A DNA stretch of 64,000 nucleotides from Escherichia coli. GTDB lineage: Bacteria > Pseudomonadota > Gammaproteobacteria > Enterobacterales > Enterobacteriaceae. This document shows, in pieces, positions 3,295-59,089 of this stretch. A program made the position numbers and the translations under genes. The notes under the pieces are model-generated. The model saw only the letters and a program-made list of their open reading frames with translations, did not search any database and was not told the DNA's origin. Every line of letters begins with the position of its first letter. Position 1 is the stretch's first letter. The stretch lies in NCBI RefSeq assembly GCF_050920415.1, contig NZ_CP169309.1, one strand, 5' to 3'.

Positions 3295-4850
3295 TTATTT
3301 AATATCTTTCACGCGCATACCGTTGATCTGTTCATCCGTGATGGTATTACCCGCTTTAAAGTAATCAACCACCGCGTGATAAACGTAATAACCGCCCGTC
3401 GTATTGCGCGCTTTACCCTCGGTAAACGCGGTAAAACCATCTCCACCATCAGCAAGGAAACTCTGAGTGGCAATGTGGTAAACCGTCGCATCTTCAATCG
3501 GTTTGCCATTCAAAGTCAGTGAGATAACCCGCTGACCAACCGGCTTGCTGCTGTCGTACTTCATTTCCAGGCCTTTCGATACCTGTAAAACGCCATTACT
3601 TAAACTTGCGCCGTGTTCCATCAAACTGCGTAATTGTTTACCCGTGAGATCCATCGTCACCAGTTCGTTGGGGAACGGGAAGGTACTGATGACGCCACCC
3701 ATCGTAATTGCACCCGCCGGGATCTCATTGCGAATCCCGCCAGAGTTGGTTAACGCCAACTGGGTATTTTTACCCGCCGCTGCCAGCAAAGCGTCCGCCG
3801 CCAGGTTCCCGAGGGAAGCCGATTCACCATAGGCACGTTTTAATTCAACCGGCGATTGCGCCACCGTTTGCTGACTTCATCCAGCTTTTTGTTCCAACTA
3901 TCAATCACCTGTTTCGTTTGCGGATCGGGCTTCCACTCATCGGCGTAAAGGGTTTTAAGCTCGAAGTTTTTCACCGTAAAAGTGTGCGGCTTCTCTTTGT
4001 AGTCGAGAACCAGTTTACCCACATCAATCCCGCCGCTGTCAGTGGAGAGGATTAACGTATTGCCGACTTTAATCGGTTCCGGCGTACCCACATGTGCATG
4101 CCCGGTGATCAAAATATCCAGCCCTTTCACCTGACTTGCCGTCTGAATATCTTTATCCAGCGCGCGACGCACATCTGTGCCTCCCATACTGGACTGGCGG
4201 GCCGGAACACCTTCGTGGATCAGGGCAACGGTCAAATCAACCTTGCCTTTGAGTTCATCGATATAACGTTGTAGCCATTTAATTTCATCACGCGCCTCAA
4301 TACCCACTCGCGTTGCCGCAGATACCGTATCATTAAAGGCAAATACACCGTGCAAACCAATCACGCCAATTTTCACGCCGTCTTTTTCAATGATGGTATA
4401 GGGCTTATCCCAGAATGATTTACTGCTGTTCTGATAAAAAACATTACCCTGCACAATCGGGAATTTTGCCTGACTCAGCTGTAATAACGTATTGTCCCAG
4501 CCGTGATCAAATTCATGATTACCTATAGTGACCGCATCGAACGGCATGGTATTCATAATATCGATAATCGCCTTGCCTTTAGTCAGGCTGCTGATATACG
4601 GCCCGGTAAAATAGTCACCCGCATCAAAAAACCAGGTCGCTTTGTTTTTAGCTTTTTCTTGTTTAACAAGCGTAGTGATATTTGCCCAGCCGCCAATATC
4701 TCGTTTACCGTCAGCAATCCACGGCACTTTATAAGGCTCTACATGTGCATGGAGGTCGTTGGTATAAATGATGGTGACATCTTTGGCGCAAGCCCAAAAC
4801 GGCAGTGTTAATGCGATACCCGCAGCAAGCATTTTAATTTTCATAAACAA
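3295..4850 (-). pseudogene. 5'-nucleotidase / metallophosphatase family paralog disrupted by a frameshift
   Basis: Two overlapping minus-strand ORFs in different frames (3840-4850, 336 aa; 3295-3864, 189 aa). Together they align end to end with the intact paralog at 7922-9547 (N-part ...[15 protein letters not shown]; C-part [19 protein letters not shown]...). The frame break is near 3850-3865. Metallophosphatase motifs DxH, GDxxxG and GNHE are present. Confidence 0.75.
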
Positions 4851-4893
4851 TCCCTTCCAGTGAGATAAAGGATTGCTACATTACGTTCTGAAA

Positions 4894-4909
4894 GGCTTTT
4901 TTATGTGAG
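4894..4909. promoter_or_regulatory. perfect-consensus CRP-type site TGTGA-N6-TCACA in a divergent promoter region
   Basis: Sequence tTGTGAgaatacTCACAt sits between the divergent starts at 4850 (minus) and 4977 (plus). Both half-sites match the CRP consensus exactly. Confidence 0.55.
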
Positions 4910-4976
4910 AATACTCACATCCAGAGGCGATAACTGTAGGACAAAATCAACGACCTTATGAAATCGTTGGTGATAT

Positions 4977-6104
4977 ATGTCAAATCTGTTTGCGATTAAT
5001 GTCTGTAAAACGTTCGGTTGTCGAAATTTGGGATTGGCCTCATCGGAAGATTACAGTTGGCCAGACTATAAACTGGGTTTTCCGGCACTACACTGCCAGG
5101 CATGCGGAAGTTACCCCCCTTTGTTTGATGAACAACAATTTCGTGACTGGTTGTCAGTTCACATGACTACGTGTGCCATAGAAACAGGGCATTTTTGTCC
5201 ATCATGCTATTGTAAAGAAAAGATTTTTTATGGCCACAACCCGCAGGGAACACAACGCGTTCAATGCCGTTCATGCAAAAAAGTCTGGACTCCGAAACAG
5301 CAGCCAGCAAGAGAAATTACGTATCCCCAGTCCATTGAAACCGTTCAACTGTTCATGCCCTTTCAAGGAGCCAGCGCACTACAAAAGCTCTATGTTTTAG
5401 TCAGTCTTGACGCCACTCGTGGCAACATCCTTCATCTCTCCACGAATTATACGCAACATCAGACAGGAGACAGTCTGCGGTACAGTTACAGAGGCAATAC
5501 AGAACCAACTGAGCACCATAGCGATATTGTGCAGAGGGTAGATATGCGTGAAGCGCAATTCTTGCGCCGGAGCCAGTTCGATGAAATTCAGTATGGCAGT
5601 GCTGTGCTCAAGCGCAATGGCAAGGGAGCCATACTACGCCCGGTTATCACGGCACACGGGCATTTCAGAATACTGAAAATCCGCTTTCCACATGTCAAAA
5701 CGCATATCATTTCACACGAATGTTTTCTGAGAGGCGCAATTATTACAGCCTGGGCAGATCAGTTCCGCCAACAACAAGGCGAACTTTGGTTCGTAGAAGA
5801 AGAAATCAGCGACCGTAACGCTGATATTCCCTGGCATTTTCAGGGAACGACATACCATGGTTGGTGGCAAAATCAGTGGCAACGCTGGGGGCAGGGGAAT
5901 AACAGCAAGATGGTCTGCCTGCTCACAGGAGTCTCCTTAGAAAGGGGCGCAAATGTTTCTCTGGCAACCAGTCGTTGCTTTATCACATGGCTGACAGACC
6001 AACACGACTTTACCCAAAGCGCGTTATTATCCGCAGGTCGCGTAACGAAAATGCTGACCTCACTGGCGTTAAAATACAATGAATCGCTCAATCCATCTTG
6101 TTAG
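4977..6104 (+). CDS. hypothetical cysteine-rich protein (multiple CxxC pairs, possible zinc-ribbon N-terminus); function unknown
   Basis: 375-aa ORF with no signal peptide. N-terminal 100 residues carry C10/C15, C40/C43, C74/C77/C79 and C97/C100 (HCQACGS..., CPSCYC..., CRSCKKVW). The C-terminal part is Trp-rich. I do not recognise the family. Confidence 0.65.
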   Translation: MSNLFAINVCKTFGCRNLGLASSEDYSWPDYKLGFPALHCQACGSYPPLFDEQQFRDWLSVHMTTCAIETGHFCPSCYCKEKIFYGHNPQGTQRVQCRSCKKVWTPKQQPAREITYPQSIETVQLFMPFQGASALQKLYVLVSLDATRGNILHLSTNYTQHQTGDSLRYSYRGNTEPTEHHSDIVQRVDMREAQFLRRSQFDEIQYGSAVLKRNGKGAILRPVITAHGHFRILKIRFPHVKTHIISHECFLRGAIITAWADQFRQQQGELWFVEEEISDRNADIPWHFQGTTYHGWWQNQWQRWGQGNNSKMVCLLTGVSLERGANVSLATSRCFITWLTDQHDFTQSALLSAGRVTKMLTSLALKYNESLNPSC

Positions 6105-6222: not shown

Positions 6223-6238
6223 TGTTACTAAGATCACA
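6223..6238. promoter_or_regulatory. CRP-like site (TGTTA-N6-TCACA, one mismatch) upstream of the nucleotidase/tsx-like gene set
   Basis: tTGTTActaagaTCACAt lies about 95 bp upstream of the 6334 start in an AT-rich 229-bp leader. Confidence 0.3.
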
Positions 6239-6333
6239 TAATACTTTCCTGACCTATGCTTACATAAAAATAAGACACGGAGTTCCTTTTATTTAAATAA
6301 TTCAACCAATGTAACAACCCCTATCAAGGAGGG

Positions 6334-7887
6334 ATGATGAGAACTGTATTTACGACTTTATCAGTCATATTCAGCGTGATGTTTTCTCACAGTATACTAG
6401 CTCAGGACGTTACTATTTATTATACGAATGATATTCACGCACATGTCAATCCGGCAAAAATTCCCGCTGTTGATAAGAACAGACTTGTAGGTGGTATGGC
6501 TAATATCGCAGGCATCGTTAATGAAGCGAAGAAAAAAAACAAAGATGTCTTTTTCTTTGATGCAGGCGACTATTTTACCGGTCCGTATATCAGTACCCTG
6601 ACCAAAGGTGAAGCTATTATTGATATCATGAACACCATGCCCTTTGATGCGGTGTCCGTTGGTAATCACGAGTTCGATCACGGCGTGCCCAATATGGTAT
6701 CTCAGTTATCAAAAGCAAAATTCCCCATTCTGCTGGGAAATATTTACTACACCGATACAAATAAACCAGTTTGGGATCATCCGTGGACCATTATCGAAAA
6801 AGATGGTTTAAAGATTGGTGTGATTGGATTGCATGGTGCATTCGCTTTCTATGATACAGTCGCGGCAAAAGCACGTGAAGGCGTAGAAGCCAGAGACGAA
6901 ATTAAATATTTAAATAAAGCACTTGCAGAATTAAAAGGTAAAGTCGACATTACCGTTTTGCTAATTCACGAAGGTGTTCCGGCGCGTCAATCAAGCTTTG
7001 GTAGTAAAGATGTGGAGCGGCTACTACAGGCAGATATTGAGACAGCTAAAAAAGTGAATGGTGTTGATGTCTTAATTACCGGTCACGCACATGTCGGAAC
7101 ACCGCAACCAATAAAAGTTAATAACACATTAATTGTATCTACCGATGCATACGGCACCGACATCGGAAAACTTGTGCTTGATTACAATCCGAAAACAAAG
7201 AAAATTGATAGTTATAATGGTGAGTTAATCACCATCTTTGCAGATCAATTTAAACCTGACACCATCGTTCAAAATACTATCGATAAATGGAGCGTAAAAC
7301 TTAACAAAATAACACAGGAAGTTGTCGGCCATTCTCCCGTAGTTTTAACACGTGAGTATGGCAGTTCTTCTTCTACCGGTAACCTTATTCTGGATGCAAT
7401 GATGGAAAAAACACCTGATGCCATTGCCGGATTTCAAAATAGCGGTGGGATGCGAGCTGATTTTCCTAAAGGTGATATCACACTGGGAGATGTTATTAGC
7501 ACATTCCCCTTTAATAATGACCTCATCGAGATGGATTTGACGGGCCGCGATCTCAAATCGTTGATGACGCATGCAACCAATCTAACTAACGGTGTGTTAC
7601 AGGTTTCAAAAAGCGTTGCGGTTGTCTATGACAGCAAAAAACCACTCAACCAACGGTTAATCTCTTTCACCATTAACGGCAAACCCGTGGAAGATAATCA
7701 AACATATCGTATTGCCACGCACTCCTTTTGTGCCAGTGGTGGTGACGGTTTTGAAGCATTTTTGAATGGAAAAAATGTGAAGACGATACCGGGAACAACC
7801 TCGGCGGAATCAATCATCGATTATTTCAAAAATCATAAACCTGTCACCCCAGACTTAACTAAACGAGTCATGGACGTCGCCAAATAA
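6334..7887 (+). CDS. periplasmic bifunctional metallophosphatase / 5'-nucleotidase family protein (UshA-like)
   Basis: 517-aa ORF with a signal peptide (MMRTVFTTLSVIFSVMFSHSILA|QD), metallophosphatase motifs (TNDIHAH, FDAGDYFTG, GNHEFD) and a 5'-nucleotidase-type C-terminal domain. Strong Shine-Dalgarno (aaggaggg) precedes the start. Confidence 0.85.
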   Translation: MMRTVFTTLSVIFSVMFSHSILAQDVTIYYTNDIHAHVNPAKIPAVDKNRLVGGMANIAGIVNEAKKKNKDVFFFDAGDYFTGPYISTLTKGEAIIDIMNTMPFDAVSVGNHEFDHGVPNMVSQLSKAKFPILLGNIYYTDTNKPVWDHPWTIIEKDGLKIGVIGLHGAFAFYDTVAAKAREGVEARDEIKYLNKALAELKGKVDITVLLIHEGVPARQSSFGSKDVERLLQADIETAKKVNGVDVLITGHAHVGTPQPIKVNNTLIVSTDAYGTDIGKLVLDYNPKTKKIDSYNGELITIFADQFKPDTIVQNTIDKWSVKLNKITQEVVGHSPVVLTREYGSSSSTGNLILDAMMEKTPDAIAGFQNSGGMRADFPKGDITLGDVISTFPFNNDLIEMDLTGRDLKSLMTHATNLTNGVLQVSKSVAVVYDSKKPLNQRLISFTINGKPVEDNQTYRIATHSFCASGGDGFEAFLNGKNVKTIPGTTSAESIIDYFKNHKPVTPDLTKRVMDVAK

Positions 7888-7921
7888 AATATCATTTATC
7901 AGTCTATATATTTAACAAGGA

Positions 7922-9547
7922 ATGCGAATGAAAACAGTGCAGCGTACTTTACTTGCCGCAACATTGCTGACTATTTTTTCGGTCTCAGTCATGGCGCAGG
8001 ATGGCACGATTATTTATACAAATGATCTTCACACTCATGTGGATTCTTATAAAGTGCCGTATATCGCAGACGGAAAACGCGACATTGGCGGCTTTGCCAA
8101 TATATCTACTTTAGTAAAACAAGAGAAAGCGAAAAATAAAGCCACCTTTTATTTTGATGCTGGAGACTATTTCACCGGCCCTTATATCAGCAGTCTGACA
8201 AAGGGCGAAGCAATAATTGACATTATGAATACCATGCCTTTTGACGCAGTATCAATCGGCAATCATGAGTTTGACCATGGCTGGGATAATGCCCTGCGAC
8301 AATTAAGCAAAGCGAATTTTCCTGTTTTATTGGGCAATGTTTATCATAAAGAGAGTGAGAAACCCTTCTGGAACAAGCCCTACACCATCCTGGAAAAAGA
8401 TGGCATCAAGATTGGTATTATTGGGCTACACGGCGTATTTGCATTTAATGATACGGTCTCGGAGCTCTCTCTCCAGGGACTCGATAATGACAATAATAAC
8501 CGCTTTGATAAATCTTCCGAGACCCTTAAGAATCAGGGGATTGAAGCACGTGATGAAGTGAAGTATTTGCAGCATTATATCGACGAGTTACGTGATAAGG
8601 TTGACCTCACTGTGGCGCTGGTTCATGAAGGCGTTCCGGCGCGTCAGTCCAGCATTGGCAATACAGATGTTAGACGCGCTCTTGATAAAGATATTCAAAC
8701 CGCTAGCAAGGTGAAAGGATTGGATATTCTGATTACCGGGCATGCCCACGTCGGAACGCCAGAACCAATCAAAGTCGGCAACACCTTAATCCTTTCGACT
8801 GATAGTGGCGGTATCGATATTGGTAAATTAGTCCTTGATGTCAACCCTACAGCTCGTACCCATAAAATGAAGAGCTTTGAGCTGAAAACAGTTTATGCCG
8901 ATGAATGGATACCCGATCCAACGACACAAAAAGTTATCAATGGCTGGAATAAAAAACTGGCGGATATTGTACGCCAACCAGTGGGTGAATCATCGATTGT
9001 ATTAACTCGCGCCTATGGTGAGTCATCGCAACTAGGCAACCTGTTTACCGATGCAATGCTTGTCGCTGCTCCGACTGCACAGATTGCATTGATAAACTCC
9101 GGCAGCTTACGTGCGGATATAAATGCAGGCACGATTACCTTTGGCGACATTACCAGTACATTCCCCTTCAAGAATGAACTTACTGAAATGGATCTCAGCG
9201 GTAAGGATCTGCGTAACCTACTGGAACACGGGGCATCGCTTACCAATGGCATCCTGCAAATGTCAAAAGGCGCAGAAATGCGCTATACCCCGCAGAAACC
9301 AGTAGGTCAGCGCATAGTATCTTTTAAAATTAATGGTGAAGAGATCGTTGATACGAATATTTACCATGTTGCAACAACGACTTTCCTTGCACTGGGGGGC
9401 GATGGTTTTCTGGCATTCAAAGAAGGGAAAAATGTTCAGGTCCGCGCCAGAAATAACATGTCCGATGTCGTGATCGATTATTTGAAGAAAGGCCACAAGA
9501 TTACGCCTGCACAGGTAAATGAAATGCGGGTGGACGTTAGCAAATAA
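7922..9547 (+). CDS. periplasmic bifunctional metallophosphatase / 5'-nucleotidase family protein, second paralog
   Basis: 541-aa ORF with a signal peptide (…VSVMA|QDG) and the same motif set. It is about 80% identical by eye to the frameshifted copy at 3295-4850 and carries an extra low-complexity insert (LQGLDNDNNNRFDKSSETLKNQ). Confidence 0.85.
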   Translation: MRMKTVQRTLLAATLLTIFSVSVMAQDGTIIYTNDLHTHVDSYKVPYIADGKRDIGGFANISTLVKQEKAKNKATFYFDAGDYFTGPYISSLTKGEAIIDIMNTMPFDAVSIGNHEFDHGWDNALRQLSKANFPVLLGNVYHKESEKPFWNKPYTILEKDGIKIGIIGLHGVFAFNDTVSELSLQGLDNDNNNRFDKSSETLKNQGIEARDEVKYLQHYIDELRDKVDLTVALVHEGVPARQSSIGNTDVRRALDKDIQTASKVKGLDILITGHAHVGTPEPIKVGNTLILSTDSGGIDIGKLVLDVNPTARTHKMKSFELKTVYADEWIPDPTTQKVINGWNKKLADIVRQPVGESSIVLTRAYGESSQLGNLFTDAMLVAAPTAQIALINSGSLRADINAGTITFGDITSTFPFKNELTEMDLSGKDLRNLLEHGASLTNGILQMSKGAEMRYTPQKPVGQRIVSFKINGEEIVDTNIYHVATTTFLALGGDGFLAFKEGKNVQVRARNNMSDVVIDYLKKGHKITPAQVNEMRVDVSK

Positions 9548-9557
9548 TAAAAAATTA

Positions 9558-9592
9558 TAATGCCATTCATTCACTGAATGGCATTATTTTTC
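9558..9592 (+). terminator. rho-independent terminator-like hairpin after the second nucleotidase gene
   Basis: Inverted repeat aatgccattca / tgaatggcatt with loop ttcac, followed by a T-run (tattttt). Confidence 0.55.
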
Positions 9593-9624
9593 TCTAAATC
9601 AACAATAAATAATGAGATATATTT

Positions 9625-10485
9625 ATGTGTATAAAAAAGCACGGGATAGCTTTATCGATTCTATTAATACCTTGCATTGGAAACGCTCAGGAAATTAAAA
9701 GTGAGGAAGGCTGGTTACATCAAAGCTTGAATGTCATTGGTCGCACAGACTCTCGCTTTGGCCCAAGGCTGACTAACGACCTCTACCCTGAATATACTGT
9801 AGCAGGAAGAAAAGACTGGTTTGATTTTTATGGTTATGTTGATCTACCAAAATTCTTTGGCGTCGGCAGTCACTATGATGTTGGGATCTGGGATGAGGGC
9901 TCACCACTATTTACGGAAATAGAACCTCGGTTTTCCATTGACAAATTGACCGGATTAAATCTTGCGTTCGGCCCTTTTAAAGAATGGTTCATTGCAAACA
10001 ACTATGTCTATGATATGGGTGACAACCAGTCATCCCGGCAAAGTACATGGTATATGGGGCTTGGTACAGATATCGACACGGGTCTACCAATTAAGCTTTC
10101 TGCCAATATATACACCAAGTATCAGTGGCAAAACTATGGTGCCGCTAATGAAAATGAATGGGACGGATATCGATTCAAAATAAAATATAGCATTCCTCTT
10201 ACCCATTTATTCGGAGGGCGATTGGTATACAATAGTTTTACTAACTTTGATTTTGGCTCCGATCTTGCGGACAAATCACACAATAATAAACGAACCAGTA
10301 ATGCTATTGCTTCAAGCCATATCCTTTCCCTGCTATATGAACACTGGAAATTTGCATTTACACTACGTTATTTTCACAACGGTGGACAATGGAATGCTGG
10401 GGAGAAAGTTAACTTCGGAGATGGTCCATTTGAATTAAAAAACACAGGATGGGGAACCTATACTACTATTGGTTATCAATTTTAA
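9625..10485 (+). CDS. Tsx-family outer-membrane nucleoside-specific channel paralog
   Basis: 286-aa ORF with a signal peptide (…IGNA|QE). It shares long blocks with E. coli Tsx as I remember it ([90 protein letters not shown]) and ends in an aromatic residue. Confidence 0.85.
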
Positions 10486-10630: not shown

Positions 10631-10688
10631 CCACCTCCGCAGGAGGTGGTTTAGAGGTGACAACAAAAGCTGGCAACTGCCAGCTTTT
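10631..10688. terminator. two adjacent hairpins forming a probable bidirectional terminator between the tsx-like gene and metL
   Basis: ccacctccgcaggaggtgg (10631-10649) and aaaagctggcaactgccagctttt (10665-10688). On the minus strand the second is a GC stem followed by a T-run immediately after the metL stop. Confidence 0.55.
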
Positions 10689-10700
10689 GTTCAATAATCA

Positions 10701-13133
10701 CTACAACAACTGCGCCAGACGGTTAATATCCGACTGAATCGCCCCGGCGGTGACGTCGCGCCCTGCACCTGGCCCGCGGATCACCAGCGGGTTGTCGCGA
10801 TACCAGCGGCTTTCGATGGCAAAGACGTTATCGCACGGTAGTAGTGATGCCAGCGGATGGTCTTCTCGCACCGCTTCCACGCCTACTCGCGCTTTGCCGT
10901 TGGCATCGAAACGCGCCACGTAGCGCAACACCAGCCCCATTTCACGGGCCGCTTCCAACCGTTGTACCATCTGCTCATTAAGTTCATCGCCATTTTCAAA
11001 GAAATGGTCGATGCTTCCACCTTCGCAATGGGTTGGCACCAGTGATTCAACACGCACCTGGTCCGGTTCAATGTTGTAACCCGCTTCACGCGCCAGAATC
11101 ACCAGCTTGCGCATCACGTCTTTGCCGGAGAGGTCATCACGCGGGTCAGGTTCAGTTAAGCCCTGCTGCCACGCCTGATCCACCAGCTCGGTAAACGGCA
11201 CGCTACCGTCGAATTGCAGGAACAGCCAGGAGAGTGTGCCGGAGAAGATCCCGCTGATCGACAAAATAGTGTCGCCGCTGTCGATCAGATCGCGCACGGT
11301 ATGGTTGATCGGCAAACCTGCGCCGACGGTGGCGTTGTATAGCCAGTGACGCCCGGTTTTTTCGAACGCGTCGTGGATCTGGCGATATTTATTGCTGTCG
11401 CTCGCTCCCGCCAGTTTGTTGGCACTGATGACGTGGAAACCGTGGCTGGCGAAATCGAGGTATTGATCGGCCAGTTGCTGACTGGCGGTAACGTCCAGCA
11501 CCACTAAATCATCATACGGATGGGCACGCATCCACAGGAACAGCGACTCTTCATCCTGTTCGACGGCTTCATCATTAAAGAAGGCTAGCGCACGGCTGGC
11601 GTCCAGCCCGTCATAGCTCAACAGGCTGCGACGGCTGTCCACCACGCCTGCCAGCACAAATTCAAAGCCGGTGCGCGCCGAGAGCGTGCTCTGCTCACGG
11701 GCGAACAGTTCCAGCCAGCGGGAACCGATATTGCCCTTACCGAACAATACCAGGCCGATGCGTTTTTCTGCGCGGAAGACGGACTGATGCAGCCCCTGAA
11801 TCAGGCTTTCGGTCGGCCCGGTGCGCAGTACTGCCACCAGGCTGATGCCGTCATCGGACTGCCAGGTAAACTCGACCGGCTGGCCTTTCAGTTGCTGCCA
11901 GAAGCGGTGGCAATGCAGCGGGTTACGGGTGACGCCCGCCCCAACCATCGCCACCAGCGCCAGCCCCTGACGCAGGCGCAGTTCGCCAGGTAATCCTGCT
12001 TCGTCGAGGATTTTCAGCGCACTGTCGGCCACTTCCGAGGTGTAGCAAAATTGCAGCAACTGGCGATCGTTATGCACGCCAACCGCCAGTGGGCGCACCT
12101 GAGCACGTTTCAGGATTTGGTCGATCTCTTTATGCGCCAGTTTGAAATCCTGACTGGCGGGCACCTGAAACTCAATCAAACAGACATCATCGTGGCTGGT
12201 GACAATACGCGCGCCCGTACCGGAAGCCAGCACGCGTTCAATGCGCGTGGAACCTTGATCCGGTGTATAGCTACAGCGCAGCTGCAGGTCGATTTCACTG
12301 CCAGAAACTGGCTGTAAAGTACGCGCGTGCAACACTGGCGCGGCAAGACGCGCCAGTTCGCTGGCTTCATCAAGACGCAGCAATGGCAGCAGACAGGCAT
12401 CTTTCACTTTACGCGGGTCGGCGCTATATACCCCGGCGACGTCACTCCAGATGGTTACGCGGGAAACTCCCGCCAGCGCACCGATTTGTGTCGCGGAATA
12501 GTCGGAACCGTTACGCCCCAGCAGCACCGTTTCACCGGCGTTGTTACGGCTGATAAACCCGGTCACCACCAGACGTTTGCCCGGATGTTGTACCAGTAGC
12601 TGTTGCAGCAACGGGTAAGAAAGCCCTTCATCAACCTGCGGCTGCGCGGCGCGTTCAGCGCGTAAAAACTCGCGGGCATCAAGCCAGGCCGCTGGCAATC
12701 CTTGTTGATTAAGTACCGCAGACATCAGGCGCGCCGACCACACTTCACCGTGGCCCACCACTTCCGCATACACCGCATCGTTAATACCGCTGTCGAGCAG
12801 CGCCGCCAGGCGTTCCAGATCGCTGACAAAAGCGCTAATGAGGCTATCGGCTTCTTCAGCGGGTAGCAGGCCGCTAATCAGATCGCACTGATAACGACGT
12901 AGCGTTTGTTGAACCTGATGCGCAGAGAGACGATCGGTCTGGCTTAGTTTCAACCAGTTAATCAACTGGTTAGTGGTGCTACCGGCGGCGGAAACCACCA
13001 TCATATCGTCAGGCTGAGAGTACTCCGCCATAATGCCCGCGACACGCAAATAACACTTCACATCAGCCAGACTACTGCCACCAAATTTATGCAGTTGACG
13101 ACCTTTCGCCCCTGCCTGCGCAATCACACTCAT
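10701..13133 (-). CDS. metL: bifunctional aspartokinase II / homoserine dehydrogenase II
   Basis: 810-aa ORF MSVIAQAGAKGRQLHKFGGSSLADVKCYLRVAGIMAEYS... recognised as MetL. Confidence 0.96.
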   Translation of the reverse strand: MSVIAQAGAKGRQLHKFGGSSLADVKCYLRVAGIMAEYSQPDDMMVVSAAGSTTNQLINWLKLSQTDRLSAHQVQQTLRRYQCDLISGLLPAEEADSLISAFVSDLERLAALLDSGINDAVYAEVVGHGEVWSARLMSAVLNQQGLPAAWLDAREFLRAERAAQPQVDEGLSYPLLQQLLVQHPGKRLVVTGFISRNNAGETVLLGRNGSDYSATQIGALAGVSRVTIWSDVAGVYSADPRKVKDACLLPLLRLDEASELARLAAPVLHARTLQPVSGSEIDLQLRCSYTPDQGSTRIERVLASGTGARIVTSHDDVCLIEFQVPASQDFKLAHKEIDQILKRAQVRPLAVGVHNDRQLLQFCYTSEVADSALKILDEAGLPGELRLRQGLALVAMVGAGVTRNPLHCHRFWQQLKGQPVEFTWQSDDGISLVAVLRTGPTESLIQGLHQSVFRAEKRIGLVLFGKGNIGSRWLELFAREQSTLSARTGFEFVLAGVVDSRRSLLSYDGLDASRALAFFNDEAVEQDEESLFLWMRAHPYDDLVVLDVTASQQLADQYLDFASHGFHVISANKLAGASDSNKYRQIHDAFEKTGRHWLYNATVGAGLPINHTVRDLIDSGDTILSISGIFSGTLSWLFLQFDGSVPFTELVDQAWQQGLTEPDPRDDLSGKDVMRKLVILAREAGYNIEPDQVRVESLVPTHCEGGSIDHFFENGDELNEQMVQRLEAAREMGLVLRYVARFDANGKARVGVEAVREDHPLASLLPCDNVFAIESRWYRDNPLVIRGPGAGRDVTAGAIQSDINRLAQLL

Positions 13134-13135
13134 TT

Positions 13136-14296
13136 TTACCCCTTGTTTGCAGCCCGGAAGCCATTTTCCAGGTCGGCAATTAAATCTTCGCCATCTTCAA
13201 TACCGGTGGAGATACGCAGCAGCGTCTCGGAGATCCCGGCGGCAGCACGCGCTTCTGGTGCCATGCCTGCATGTGTCATGGTTGCGGCGTGAGAGATTAA
13301 ACTTTCCACTCCCCCTAATGATTCCGCCAGCGTAAACAACGACAGCCCACCCAGGAAACGACGCAGCGTCTGCTCATCGCCATCCAGTTCAAAACTCAAC
13401 ATTGCGCCAAAGCCTTTTTGCTGGCGCGCAGCAATTTCATGCCCTTGATTTTCCGGCAGCGACGGGTGATACAGTTTTTTCACCAACGGCTGGGTTTGCA
13501 GATATTTCACAATCGCCTGCGCGTTGCGCTGCGCCAGCTCCATACGCGGCACCAGCGTTCGCAAACCGCGCAGCAACAAATAACTGTCAAACGCGCCGCC
13601 CGTCACGCCAATATTGTTTGCCCACCAGGCCAGTTCGGTGACAACGTCCGGGTCTTTAGCAATCACCACGCCAGCCACTACATCTGAGTGACCGTTCAGA
13701 TATTTCGTGCATGAATGCAACACCAGATCGGCACCTAATGCCAGTGGATTTTGTAATGCCGGGCTTAAGAAGGTGTTATCCACCACGCTCACCGCCCCGA
13801 CTTCCCTTGCCAGATGGCAGATTTTCGCAATATCCACGACGCGTAACAATGGATTACTTGGGCTTTCTACCAGTACTAGTTTGGGTTTTTCTGCCAGTGC
13901 AGCCTGCAATGCCTGCTCATCTCCTTGATCAACAAACAGCACGCGATAACAGCCGCGTTTCGCCAGGCTGTCGAACAGGCGATAGCTGCCGCCGTAGCAG
14001 TCGTGCGGTGCAACCAGCAAATCGCCAGGTTTCAAAAAGACGGTCGTTACCAGGTGGATGGCAGACATGCCGGTATTAGTCAGCACTGCACCAGCACCGC
14101 CTTCCAGTTCAGCCAGCGCACGCTGAACCACATCGCGCGTTGGGTTGCCGCGACGCGAGTAATCATGCGCGCGCGGTTCATTAAATCCGGTAAAGTTATA
14201 GGTGCTGGAAAGATGGATTGGAGGGACAACGCAACCATACTGTTCGTCGTCATTTAACCCGCTACGCACTGCGATGGTGGCCTGTTTACGCGTCAT
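13136..14296 (-). CDS. metB: cystathionine gamma-synthase
   Basis: The track ORF (13136-14473) has a 59-codon upstream extension. The recognised MetB start MTRKQATIAVRSGLNDDEQYG... maps to the ATG at 14294-14296 (cat on the plus strand). Confidence 0.93.
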   Translation of the reverse strand: MTRKQATIAVRSGLNDDEQYGCVVPPIHLSSTYNFTGFNEPRAHDYSRRGNPTRDVVQRALAELEGGAGAVLTNTGMSAIHLVTTVFLKPGDLLVAPHDCYGGSYRLFDSLAKRGCYRVLFVDQGDEQALQAALAEKPKLVLVESPSNPLLRVVDIAKICHLAREVGAVSVVDNTFLSPALQNPLALGADLVLHSCTKYLNGHSDVVAGVVIAKDPDVVTELAWWANNIGVTGGAFDSYLLLRGLRTLVPRMELAQRNAQAIVKYLQTQPLVKKLYHPSLPENQGHEIAARQQKGFGAMLSFELDGDEQTLRRFLGGLSLFTLAESLGGVESLISHAATMTHAGMAPEARAAAGISETLLRISTGIEDGEDLIADLENGFRAANKG

Positions 14297-14357
14297 GTGA
14301 TGAAGTTCCCTGGGCTTTGTCGGTGAAATCTCAGGCACCAGAGTAAACATTGTGTTA

Positions 14358-14392
14358 ATGGACGTCAATACATCTGGACATCTAAACTTCTT
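14358..14392. promoter_or_regulatory. MetJ operator (met boxes) in the divergent metB / metJ control region
   Basis: GGACGTCA ATACATCT GGACATCT AAACTTCT are tandem 8-mers resembling the AGACGTCT met box. Confidence 0.6.
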
Positions 14393-14572
14393 TGCGTATA
14401 GATTGAGCAAATCCCCAATAACCGTTAAAATTACATGCATTATCACGCCGACAGGTGCATTACACGATGTCACGGTAACGCCTGTACGGTAAACTATGCG
14501 GGTTTACGGTCAGTACCCACATAAATTGTGTGGTCTGGTCTCAATTTATTGACGAAGAGGATTAAGTATCTC

Positions 14573-58255: not shown

Positions 58256-59089
58256 TTAATTACTCAAACGCTGCGGATGGGTATAAACCGTTGCCCGACC
58301 CGGCTTACAAAAGCCCACCAGCGTCAAATTACAGCGCTCAGCCACTTCTACGGCAAGCGTGGTCGCGGCAGACACCGCAAACAAAATTTCTACGCCGCAC
58401 ATCGCTGACTTTTGCACCATTTCATAACTGGCACGACTGGAAACCAGCACCGCACCTTGCTGCCAGCTTTCCCCTTCTTGTGACCGGCGGCCTAACAGTT
58501 TATCCAGCGCCACATGGCGACCCACGTCTTCATGCCCGCCTACCAGTTCGCCAGATGGCAACATCCAGGCAGCGGCGTGAGTACAACCAGTCAGTTGCCC
58601 CACTGGCTGGAAATCATTGAGATGGCGTAATGCATCATCCAGTTTGTTGAGATCAAATGTCTGAGTGAACGGCAGCGGCTGCACCGGTTTACCGATGTCA
58701 TTAAGTTGCTCCACGCCGCACACGCCACATCCCGTACGTCCCGCCAGTGCCCGACGACGCTCCTTCAACCCCATAAAGCGGCGGCTGGAAAGCTCAATTT
58801 GCACTTCCAGACCATTACAGGAAGGAACGACATCCATACCGAAGATATCGCGCGGACTTTCGATAATCCCCTCGGAAAGCGAAAAACCGAGCGCAAAGTA
58901 TTCAAGGTCTTTGGGCGACGCCATCATCACCACATGCGAAATGCCGTTGTAGACCAGCGCAACGGGAACCTCTTCCGCCACCTCATCTAACCGTGGGTGT
59001 TGTAAATCGTCACGCCGCCATAACTCAATTTGACGAACACCTGTGACATTTGTCACATTTTTGATTTCTTTTTGCTGTGTTTTTTTCAC
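58256..59089 (-). CDS. fdhD: formate dehydrogenase sulfurtransferase / accessory protein FdhD
   Basis: 277-aa [52 protein letters not shown]... recognised as FdhD. Confidence 0.95.

Follow-up and report, generated by a model that had tools for sequence, protein, structure and literature searches.

The open reading frame (ORF) considered here encodes a 375-residue protein and lies at positions 4977–6104 of a 64,000-nucleotide stretch of Escherichia coli DNA (contig NZ_CP169309.1; the whole stretch is referred to below as the window), within an insert between metF and metL. The described proteins it most resembles are those of the insertion sequence IS1, where InsA acts as a repressor that binds the IS1 ends in a sequence-specific manner. 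With InsA and InsAB' the ORF product shares an N-terminal zinc ribbon with four cysteines (CCCC), followed in long relatives by a helix-turn-helix (HTH), and with InsAB' an RNase H-like core in which ~27 residues separate the second Asp position from the Glu. It differs from IS1 in having no programmed frameshift, an extra N-terminal zinc ribbon, an HTH that is deleted in the E. coli form, and a larger core with an added β-sheet and helices (residues 269–370) in which both Asp positions appear lost; moreover, it has no terminal repeats, is single-copy and immobile, and scores far below the family cut-off. The IS256/Mutator transposase ISCth4 (PDB 6xg8), other transposases with an Asp-Asp-Glu (DDE) triad and retroviral integrases are comparable at an identity of only 6–9%, and unlike ISCth4 and its kin the ORF product has neither a conserved DDE triad nor a transposon context.

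That transposases can be domesticated into host regulators is well documented for eukaryotes; known cases include the eukaryotic transcription factors FHY3/FAR1, which derive from other superfamilies, and the TnpB-derived TldR repressors, which are RNA-guided. TnpA-REP, for which PMC8266576 uses the words "the first prokaryotic domesticated transposase", resembles the present case in that a mobile-element protein has become fixed in the host as a single-copy gene under purifying selection, with its DNA-recognition module reused; it differs in being a Y1 (HUH) enzyme that has kept its activity on REP sequences. Our literature searches returned nothing relevant on an IS1- or DDE-derived bacterial regulator, nor on the ORF itself.

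For the promoter next to the ORF, the nearest parallel is found in the CytR/CRP-controlled nucleoside promoters of E. coli, i.e. deoP2, cdd, tsx and nupG. CytR-regulated promoters carry a distal CRP site near the position that is held here by a different element, termed the ACCAAC box below. Shared features are the theme of nucleoside uptake and catabolism, a class II CRP site (predicted here) near −41.5, a second element 52–53 bp upstream of it and, in several Vibrio loci, a LacI-type operator between the two elements, whereas the distal element is here not a CRP site and is tied to the family gene rather than to nucleoside genes generally.

Set against these systems, the reading we favour, with a rough probability of 0.55, is that the ORF encodes a domesticated IS1-type transposase acting as a local regulator. 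An earlier note, made from the sequence alone, had proposed three candidate roles: a zinc-ribbon regulator of the gene module, a decayed transposase-like remnant marking the insertion, or a novel enzyme. The first fits the evidence presented below best, as a putative regulator.

Zinc ribbons and relationship to IS1

The ORF and the domains of its product are as follows.

4977–6104, + strand: ORF of 375 residues with an ATG start, 100% identical to RefSeq WP_000067199.1 ("hypothetical protein")
4998–5111, + strand: zinc ribbon 1, residues ~8–45 (C10, C15, C40, C43), family-specific and absent from IS1
5190–5285, + strand: zinc ribbon 2, residues ~72–103 (C74, C77, C97, C100), of the IS1 InsA / IS1-IS1595 type
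5319–6092, + strand: predicted RNase H-like core (DDE transposase/integrase fold), residues ~115–372

The protein was found to be as the earlier note had described it, a Cys-rich product with two CCCC zinc ribbons in its first 100 residues and with no signal peptide evident by eye. Cysteines are found at positions 10, 15, 40, 43, 66, 74, 77, 79, 97 and 100, and further ones at 249, 314, 334 and 375, alongside a total of 16 His and 11 Trp. All four Cys of zinc ribbon 1 are at least 90% conserved, and the AlphaFold2 (AF2) model places β-hairpins at residues 26–30 and 37–40. Among 57 family members, C10, C15, C40, C43, C77, C97 and C100 are invariant or at least 90% conserved.

A comparison with zinc-ribbon transposases, as the note had envisaged, was borne out by ribbon 2. 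In the E. coli protein this ribbon weakly matched both the NCBIfam IS1 transposase model, with an E-value of 6.7e-4, and Pfam Zn_ribbon_InsA (PF03811, E 0.009); the latter was matched at E ≤ 1e-3 by 8 of the 57 family members (best 1.4e-7). The long relatives aligned to positions 1–130/140 of the 199 positions of the NCBIfam IS1 model with E-values of 3e-9 to 8e-7, and the family hidden Markov model (HMM) aligned to residues 4–88 of IS1 InsA, covering ribbon and HTH, with 37 bits. Against a curated cut-off of 100 bits, the whole-protein NCBIfam IS1 score was 19.6 for the E. coli protein, and the relatives did not exceed 37. The InsA-type HTH follows ribbon 2: in this stretch three helices of the long forms can be aligned with the InsA HTH, and ~60 residues are missing from the E. 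coli protein in comparison with them.

Beyond the ribbon and HTH, sequence comparison gave little. A search with phmmer using InsAB' against family members was significant over the zinc ribbon only, the core alignments being non-significant and used as hints, and no match resulted when the family was compared with IS1 InsB alone by hhalign. PHROGs returned only a weak transposase zinc-ribbon match, PADLOC assigned no defence family to the ORF, and a sequence search found no PDB match to the 375-residue protein. The PDB matches of the family profile were C2H2 zinc fingers that agreed in Cys pattern only, and these were judged compositional. On the evidence of its sequence, the ORF product is a descendant of an IS1-type transposase.

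An RNase H-like core with altered catalytic positions

The part of the protein that follows the ribbons had been characterized in the earlier note as rich in Trp and His and as holding no assignable motif, the RNase H-like core having gone unseen there. The AF2 model of the E. coli protein (predicted local distance difference test score, pLDDT, 94; predicted template modelling score, pTM, 0.93) has a β1-β2-β3-α-β4-α-β5-α core that can be superposed on known RNase H-like members, so that the Trp/His-rich remainder is, as modelled, an RNase H-like transposase core. A Foldseek search of AFDB50 returned members of the same family only and no characterized protein.

The catalytic positions were assigned from the secondary-structure topology of the AF2 model together with conservation across the 57 sequences. 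Strand β1 (residues 119–129) has no conserved acid and carries Thr or Ser at position 122 in 54/57 sequences. After β4 (218–220), Arg or Lys is found in 42/57, followed by Pro in 54/57 (R221-P222 in the E. coli protein). The sole retained triad residue is E248, after β5, which is acidic in all 57. Invariant or near-invariant core residues are R198, H229, H247, R252, W296, W297, W301 and N368. Both Asp of the DDE triad thus appear to have been lost across the family. Support for the register, seen by eye and not statistically significant, comes from the resemblance of IS1 RWLFYAYDSLRKTVVA to the family pattern LWxLxSxDxxxGYxL and of IS1 LHVIS to the family THIIS.

The same residues could be taken to mean that the core has retained or re-invented nuclease or other catalysis, built on E248, D202, D145 and conserved His and serving a salvage-linked turnover of nucleic acids or nucleotides in the cytoplasm. 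The fold is that of RNase H-like proteins, the invariant H229 and R198 and the highly conserved H247, R252 and D202 accompany the fully acidic E248 in what looks like a preserved pocket, and the neighbouring genes are salvage genes. We nevertheless regard an enzyme as improbable. The β1 Asp is near-universal in active RNase H-like enzymes, and here its position is occupied by Thr/Ser and the post-β4 position by Arg/Lys-Pro; in addition, the N-terminal part with zinc ribbon and HTH is a module for DNA recognition that shares its ancestry with the InsA repressor, and the presence of one box per gene fits an operator. As acidic residues are missing at the canonical RNase H-like catalytic positions, the novel enzyme of the earlier note is disfavoured.

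Immobility, distribution and selection

Terminal inverted repeats flanking the ORF, for which the earlier note had proposed a search, were not found: an inverted-repeat search revealed no IS-like terminal repeats, and its matches comprised only the paralogous nucleotidase genes of the island and short AT-rich pairs. A 16-nt repeat pair (4898–4913 and 6255–6270) that overlaps the CRP site described below was judged to be due to chance or CRP-related. The ORF is a single reading frame, whereas IS1A has insA and insB with a frameshift.

Identical or near-identical copies of the gene, one chromosomal copy each, are present in 752 of 5426 complete E. coli genomes, and homologues occur in other enterics, so that the gene is conserved. 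Three allele classes are found in E. coli, with nucleotide identities of at least 99%, about 91% and about 77%, and in the regions inspected all three lie between metF and metL. Every region inspected held a single chromosomal copy at one locus, which in E. coli and Citrobacter is metF-metL. One further match at 77% identity (H39/L003; NZ_CP168949.1 5046285–5061185, strain IH5) was discarded as a mosaic of dozens of truncated unrelated gene fragments; these include tuf, casA, capsid and bla, and the region looks like an assembly artefact.

Full-length homologues with 62–89% identity, mostly named "cytoplasmic protein", are encoded by Citrobacter, Enterobacter, Klebsiella, Kluyvera, Pluralibacter and Pseudocitrobacter, and an AFDB match from Salmonella shares 59% identity. 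An exhaustive HMMER scan of 1.84 billion representatives resolved the family into 122 clusters at 50% identity, with distant full-length members of 400–570 residues that are 22–34% identical; relatives linked through their gene neighbourhood are 25–45% identical. The family is uncharacterized and restricted to Gammaproteobacteria. Database labels of its members include "cytoplasmic protein", "InsA N-terminal domain-containing protein" and, for some Vibrio homologues in UniProt, "IS1 family transposase"; the last of these is wrong.

When the window allele is compared with the B2 allele, the ORF has a ratio of nonsynonymous to synonymous divergence (dN/dS) of 0.24 at a dS of 0.24. The dN/dS of 0.24 indicates that the ORF is under purifying selection, which is weaker than that on both metF (0.02) and the neighbouring nucleotidase gene (0.09). 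In the same pair of alleles the adjacent nucleotidase gene at 6334–7887 has a dS of only 0.09, and this inequality with the ORF suggests that the island is internally mosaic or has undergone recombination.

The weak IS1/InsA matches, the UniProt labels of some Vibrio homologues and the low GC content of the insert would be in keeping with an IS1-family insertion, either active or decayed in recent times, by which the island was brought in or is marked. Against it stand the 19.6 bits scored where 100 are needed, the single ORF of 375 residues, the lack of terminal inverted repeats, the single copy at one locus in 752 genomes, the apparent family-wide loss of the Asp positions, the dN/dS of 0.24 and a synteny kept from Escherichia to Vibrionaceae, and we consider this explanation effectively refuted. 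The ORF product is a domesticated transposase and not a decaying remnant, because the Asp appear to have been lost, terminal repeats are absent, the locus is fixed and dN/dS amounts to 0.24. Of the remnant proposed earlier, transposase ancestry was hence upheld, whereas decay and a role as insertion mark do not agree with an intact, fixed single-copy gene under purifying selection.

Linkage to nucleotide and nucleoside scavenging genes

Within the window the ORF is surrounded by the following genes.

2021–2911, − strand: metF, one flank of the insert
3295–4850, − strand: divergent periplasmic 5'-nucleotidase gene, "frameshifted" in RefSeq; the conserved partner of the ORF and its presumed target
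6334–7887 and 7922–9547, + strand: two intact 5'-nucleotidase paralogues downstream of the ORF, accessory island genes
9625–10485, + strand: tsx-like nucleoside channel gene, accessory island gene
10701–14473, − strand: metL/metB, the other flank of the insert

The insert has a GC content of 35–50%, as compared to 51–61% in its flanks. The minimal unit found between metF and metL in enterics (Citrobacter and E. coli of the Ec387 type) consists of a 5'-nucleotidase gene divergent from the ORF, and B2 and F-type E. coli have this minimal unit plus nucleotidase-nucleotidase-tsx; the paralogue pair and the tsx-like gene (6334–10485) are missing from the minimal form. The nucleotidase gene adjoining the ORF is frameshifted here and intact in B2, in Ec387-type strains and in Citrobacter.

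Outside the enterics, a genome scan of Vibrionaceae and Psychromonas yielded 24 loci, 22 of them with upstream sequence, and in all 22 a 5'-nucleotidase gene with a signal peptide lies immediately upstream on the same strand. A separately found locus (L008) has the same arrangement and completes the set of 23 Vibrionaceae promoters analysed below. Among more distant relatives, identified by their handles, the family gene is divergent from a 5'-nucleotidase gene (P0140 and P0123), from nupC and a nucleoside phosphorylase gene (P0143), or from TAL-add-deoC-deoA-deoB-deoD with TatD and a Bmp/ABC nucleoside-type transporter in the flanks (P0148); in P0223 it lies downstream of a nucleoside phosphorylase gene. 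Exceptions are P0158, where the family gene follows Tsx-sulfatase-radical SAM/SPASM maturase in one same-strand unit, and P0163, where it adjoins a convergent radical SAM gene. P0238 was left out, its contig being too short to show the neighbouring genes. The family is thus linked to genes for the scavenging of nucleosides and nucleotides. Regarding the synteny envisaged in the earlier note, the pairing with nucleotidase was confirmed from Escherichia and Citrobacter to Vibrionaceae, and tsx is missing from the minimal form.

Two cases deserve separate mention. In the P0158/P0163 subgroup (L036, L037, L039 and L040) the accompanying genes are of sulfatase rather than nucleotidase type, and the family may have been re-deployed. 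In Vibrio hepatarius DSM 19134 (L031, 7909–8818) the locus is decayed: the match to the family gene begins only at residue ~101 and a nucleotidase homologue was not detected upstream, with the ACCAAC box kept (position weight matrix, PWM, score 21).

The tight pairing also allows the protein to be pictured as a cytoplasmic protein that partners or inhibits the periplasmic-type 5'-nucleotidase encoded beside it, guarding cytoplasmic nucleotides before export of the enzyme and not binding DNA. The two genes form a tight same-strand unit in 22/22 Vibrionaceae/Psychromonas loci with upstream sequence and are paired in enterics, the ORF product is cytoplasmic and the nucleotidases have signal peptides. 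A precedent is the intracellular protein inhibitor of UshA (Glaser 1967; Innes 2001; as cited in PMC8475336). This role is nonetheless very unlikely, as there are subfamilies with nupC and phosphorylase or a deo operon and no nucleotidase gene nearby, as the domains are of DNA-binding and transposase type, and as the module of box and CRP site would go unexplained. Furthermore, E. coli K-12 has UshA inhibitor activity, and K-12-type strains are without the island, the gene being present in only 752 of the 5426 complete genomes. We know of no gene that has been assigned to the UshA inhibitor.

Promoter architecture

The regulatory elements identified in the island are given below.

4904–4919: perfect CRP consensus TGTGAGAATACTCACA, in the intergenic region between the ORF and the nucleotidase gene
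4948–4971, − strand: ACCAAC box ACCAACGATTTCATAAGGTCGTTG with the dyad CAACGA-N10-TCGTTG, candidate operator of the 375-residue protein
6223–6238, + strand: CRP-like site TGTTACTAAGATCACA with 1 mismatch, in an AT-rich spacer ~95 nt upstream of nucleotidase-nucleotidase-tsx

The divergent arrangement with the frameshifted nucleotidase gene and the shared CRP region, both noted previously, were confirmed, the site at 4904–4919 being perfect. Two perfect CRP sites occur in the window compared to 0.02 expected; the second one, TGTGACATTTGTCACA at 59042–59057, is far from the island. The site at 4904–4919 is kept in the B2, Ec387 and Citrobacter alleles, and its centre lies at about −40.5/−41.5 from the inferred start of the nucleotidase promoter, with TAATGT (4878–4883, minus strand) as the inferred −10 element and TATATT as the corresponding element in Vibrio. 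In both the E. coli and the Vibrio loci a class II arrangement is thus predicted, in which the CRP site is centred near −41 and the box near −92. A consensus scan for promoters and terminators added no information.

In the direction of the nucleotidase gene (4971 down to 4948), the start of the ACCAAC box precedes the CRP site by exactly 52 nt, and the box ends 5 nt before the ATG of the ORF. In a CRP-anchored alignment made by eye, a box of ~21 bp with the consensus ACCAACWCAWWWGGWAACTYY was found ~52 nt upstream of a CRP-like site in 23/23 Vibrionaceae promoters; a PWM recovered it in 22/23, with L016 being off-register. We searched ~637 kb of loci plus the window for the composite, defined as A[CTG]CAAC preceding by 51–53 nt a CRP-like site that has no more than two mismatches. 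It occurred once per locus and always in the promoter adjoining the family gene, in the enteric loci, P0123, P0140, P0143, P0148 and 17/23 Vibrionaceae loci, with a spacing of 51–52 nt in at least six separate groups. Other matches numbered 2 in ~637 kb compared to 1.25 expected from shuffles, and the composite at the ORF is the only one in the window. No second box was found within ±8 kb of the loci, for example at the nupC homologue of L029, and no ACCAAC box lies beside the CRP-like site at 6223–6238. Between E. coli and Citrobacter the intergenic region is 79% identical, as compared to a proportion of synonymous differences of 0.8 within the gene.

The box differs between forms of the protein: it reads CAACGA-N10-TCGTTG with the HTH-less enteric form and roughly ACCA-N7-TGGT with the HTH-bearing forms. 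The possibility that the box is a distal CRP site was rejected on inspection, with 3/10 core matches, and none of the IHF, Pho, CpxR and GntR-type motifs fits it. In about ten Vibrio loci a LacI-type, PurR/CytR-like palindrome AGCAAACGTTTGCT is located between box and CRP site, at about −97 to −116 from the nucleotidase ATG (L008–L012, L018 and L024), which suggests an additional purine or nucleoside control of the operon.

These data bear on whether a regulatory protein of this family needs to read the box itself. Another host factor might sit on the box, with the protein either assisting CRP or a LacI-type repressor as a co-factor or acting as a sensor through contacts with other proteins. 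Such a role would suit the E. coli form without an HTH, the location of the box where CytR-regulated promoters have their distal CRP site (~52–53 bp), the LacI-type palindrome of about ten Vibrio loci and a CAAC...GTTG core that is loosely like CytR half-sites. The box, however, strictly co-occurs with the family gene across different target operons, is absent at other nearby nucleoside genes, does not match the CRP consensus and differs between HTH-less and HTH-bearing forms, as it should if it is read by the protein, and we therefore consider a regulator that leaves the box to others to be unlikely.

A putative domesticated regulator and points against it

In the favoured reading, a catalytically disabled descendant of an IS1-type DDE transposase has kept its InsA-type ribbon and RNase H-like core and gained a second ribbon at the N-terminus, the short form of E. 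coli and Citrobacter having lost the InsA-type HTH that longer relatives retain. The former transposase has become immobile, a fixed single-copy host gene travelling with nucleoside and nucleotide scavenging genes. By analogy with InsA on IS1 ends, the protein would bind the ACCAAC box, five helical turns (~52 bp) upstream of the CRP site of a class II CRP-dependent promoter, where it would either cooperate or interfere with cAMP-CRP and in this way modulate transcription of the periplasmic 5'-nucleotidase gene, with nupC or the deo operon as putative targets in relatives. In the divergent arrangement the box is predicted to fall at about +1 to +20 of the protein's own transcript; as it abuts the protein's own ATG, the protein would also regulate itself.

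Several points weigh against this reading. The assignment of the Asp positions in the model is topological and not a three-dimensional superposition, and E248, D202 (84%) and D145 (75%) would leave room for a non-canonical active site. Binding of DNA by the protein is a prediction: the zinc ribbons are present, the HTH is found in long relatives only and, as InsA presumably needs its HTH for DNA binding, the HTH-less E. coli form may bind differently or not at all. Since the nucleotidase promoters already have a strong CRP site and about ten of those in Vibrio also a LacI-type palindrome, known factors could account for the regulation, and a host factor other than this protein could bind the box. 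The P0158/P0163 subgroup and P0223 are without the composite of box and CRP site, and the presumed target nucleotidase gene is a pseudogene in this strain.

A more far-reaching version, which we put forward tentatively and rate at somewhat below even odds, is that the box may go back to the CCAAC core in the terminal repeat of an IS1-like element, that the former active-site pocket (T122, R221, H229, H247, E248 and R252) has become a nucleoside or nucleotide sensor, and that the family is the first case of a bacterial DDE (IS1-type) transposase turned transcription factor. The core of the IS1 ends, CCAACTTAYTGAT, resembles the ACCAAC(T) box through CCAAC(T), a speculative likeness that could be due to chance. 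Any ligand would presumably occupy the altered, His/Arg/Trp-rich pocket.

If this version is true, the family would represent an unrecognized layer of control over nucleotide scavenging (5'-nucleotidase, nupC and deo) in E. coli of the extraintestinal pathogenic (ExPEC) type, Citrobacter and vibrios. The favoured reading gives a probable function to a protein annotated as "hypothetical" or "cytoplasmic", and would correct the "IS1 family transposase" labels in Vibrio. With 122 clusters, a confident structural model, a candidate operator with fixed CRP geometry and clear target genes, the family is a testable candidate, for which the HTH-less form and the forms with other target operons offer useful natural variants.

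Further observations on the island

The metL-metF region is common to B2/F-type extraintestinal E. coli. It corresponds to "GR 31" of the avian pathogenic E. coli (APEC) strain BEN2908 in a 2026 description, whose relevant passages list three UshA-like nucleotidases and Tsx and do not mention the ORF (PMC12928451). The three UshA-like 5'-nucleotidase genes of the island share 71–76% DNA identity over several hundred bases. In an identical strain, RefSeq flags the tsx-like gene as "incomplete, missing C-terminus" (L001, 11649–12494); as the ORF encodes 286 residues, is full length and is 98% identical to the intact B2 allele, this flag is probably an annotation artefact. A 22-nt imperfect hairpin is located at 9548–9596, between the second nucleotidase gene and tsx, and a perfect 14-bp hairpin (AACAAAAGCTGGCA/TGCCAGCTTTTGTT) at 10662–10691, between tsx and metL, may act as a bidirectional terminator.

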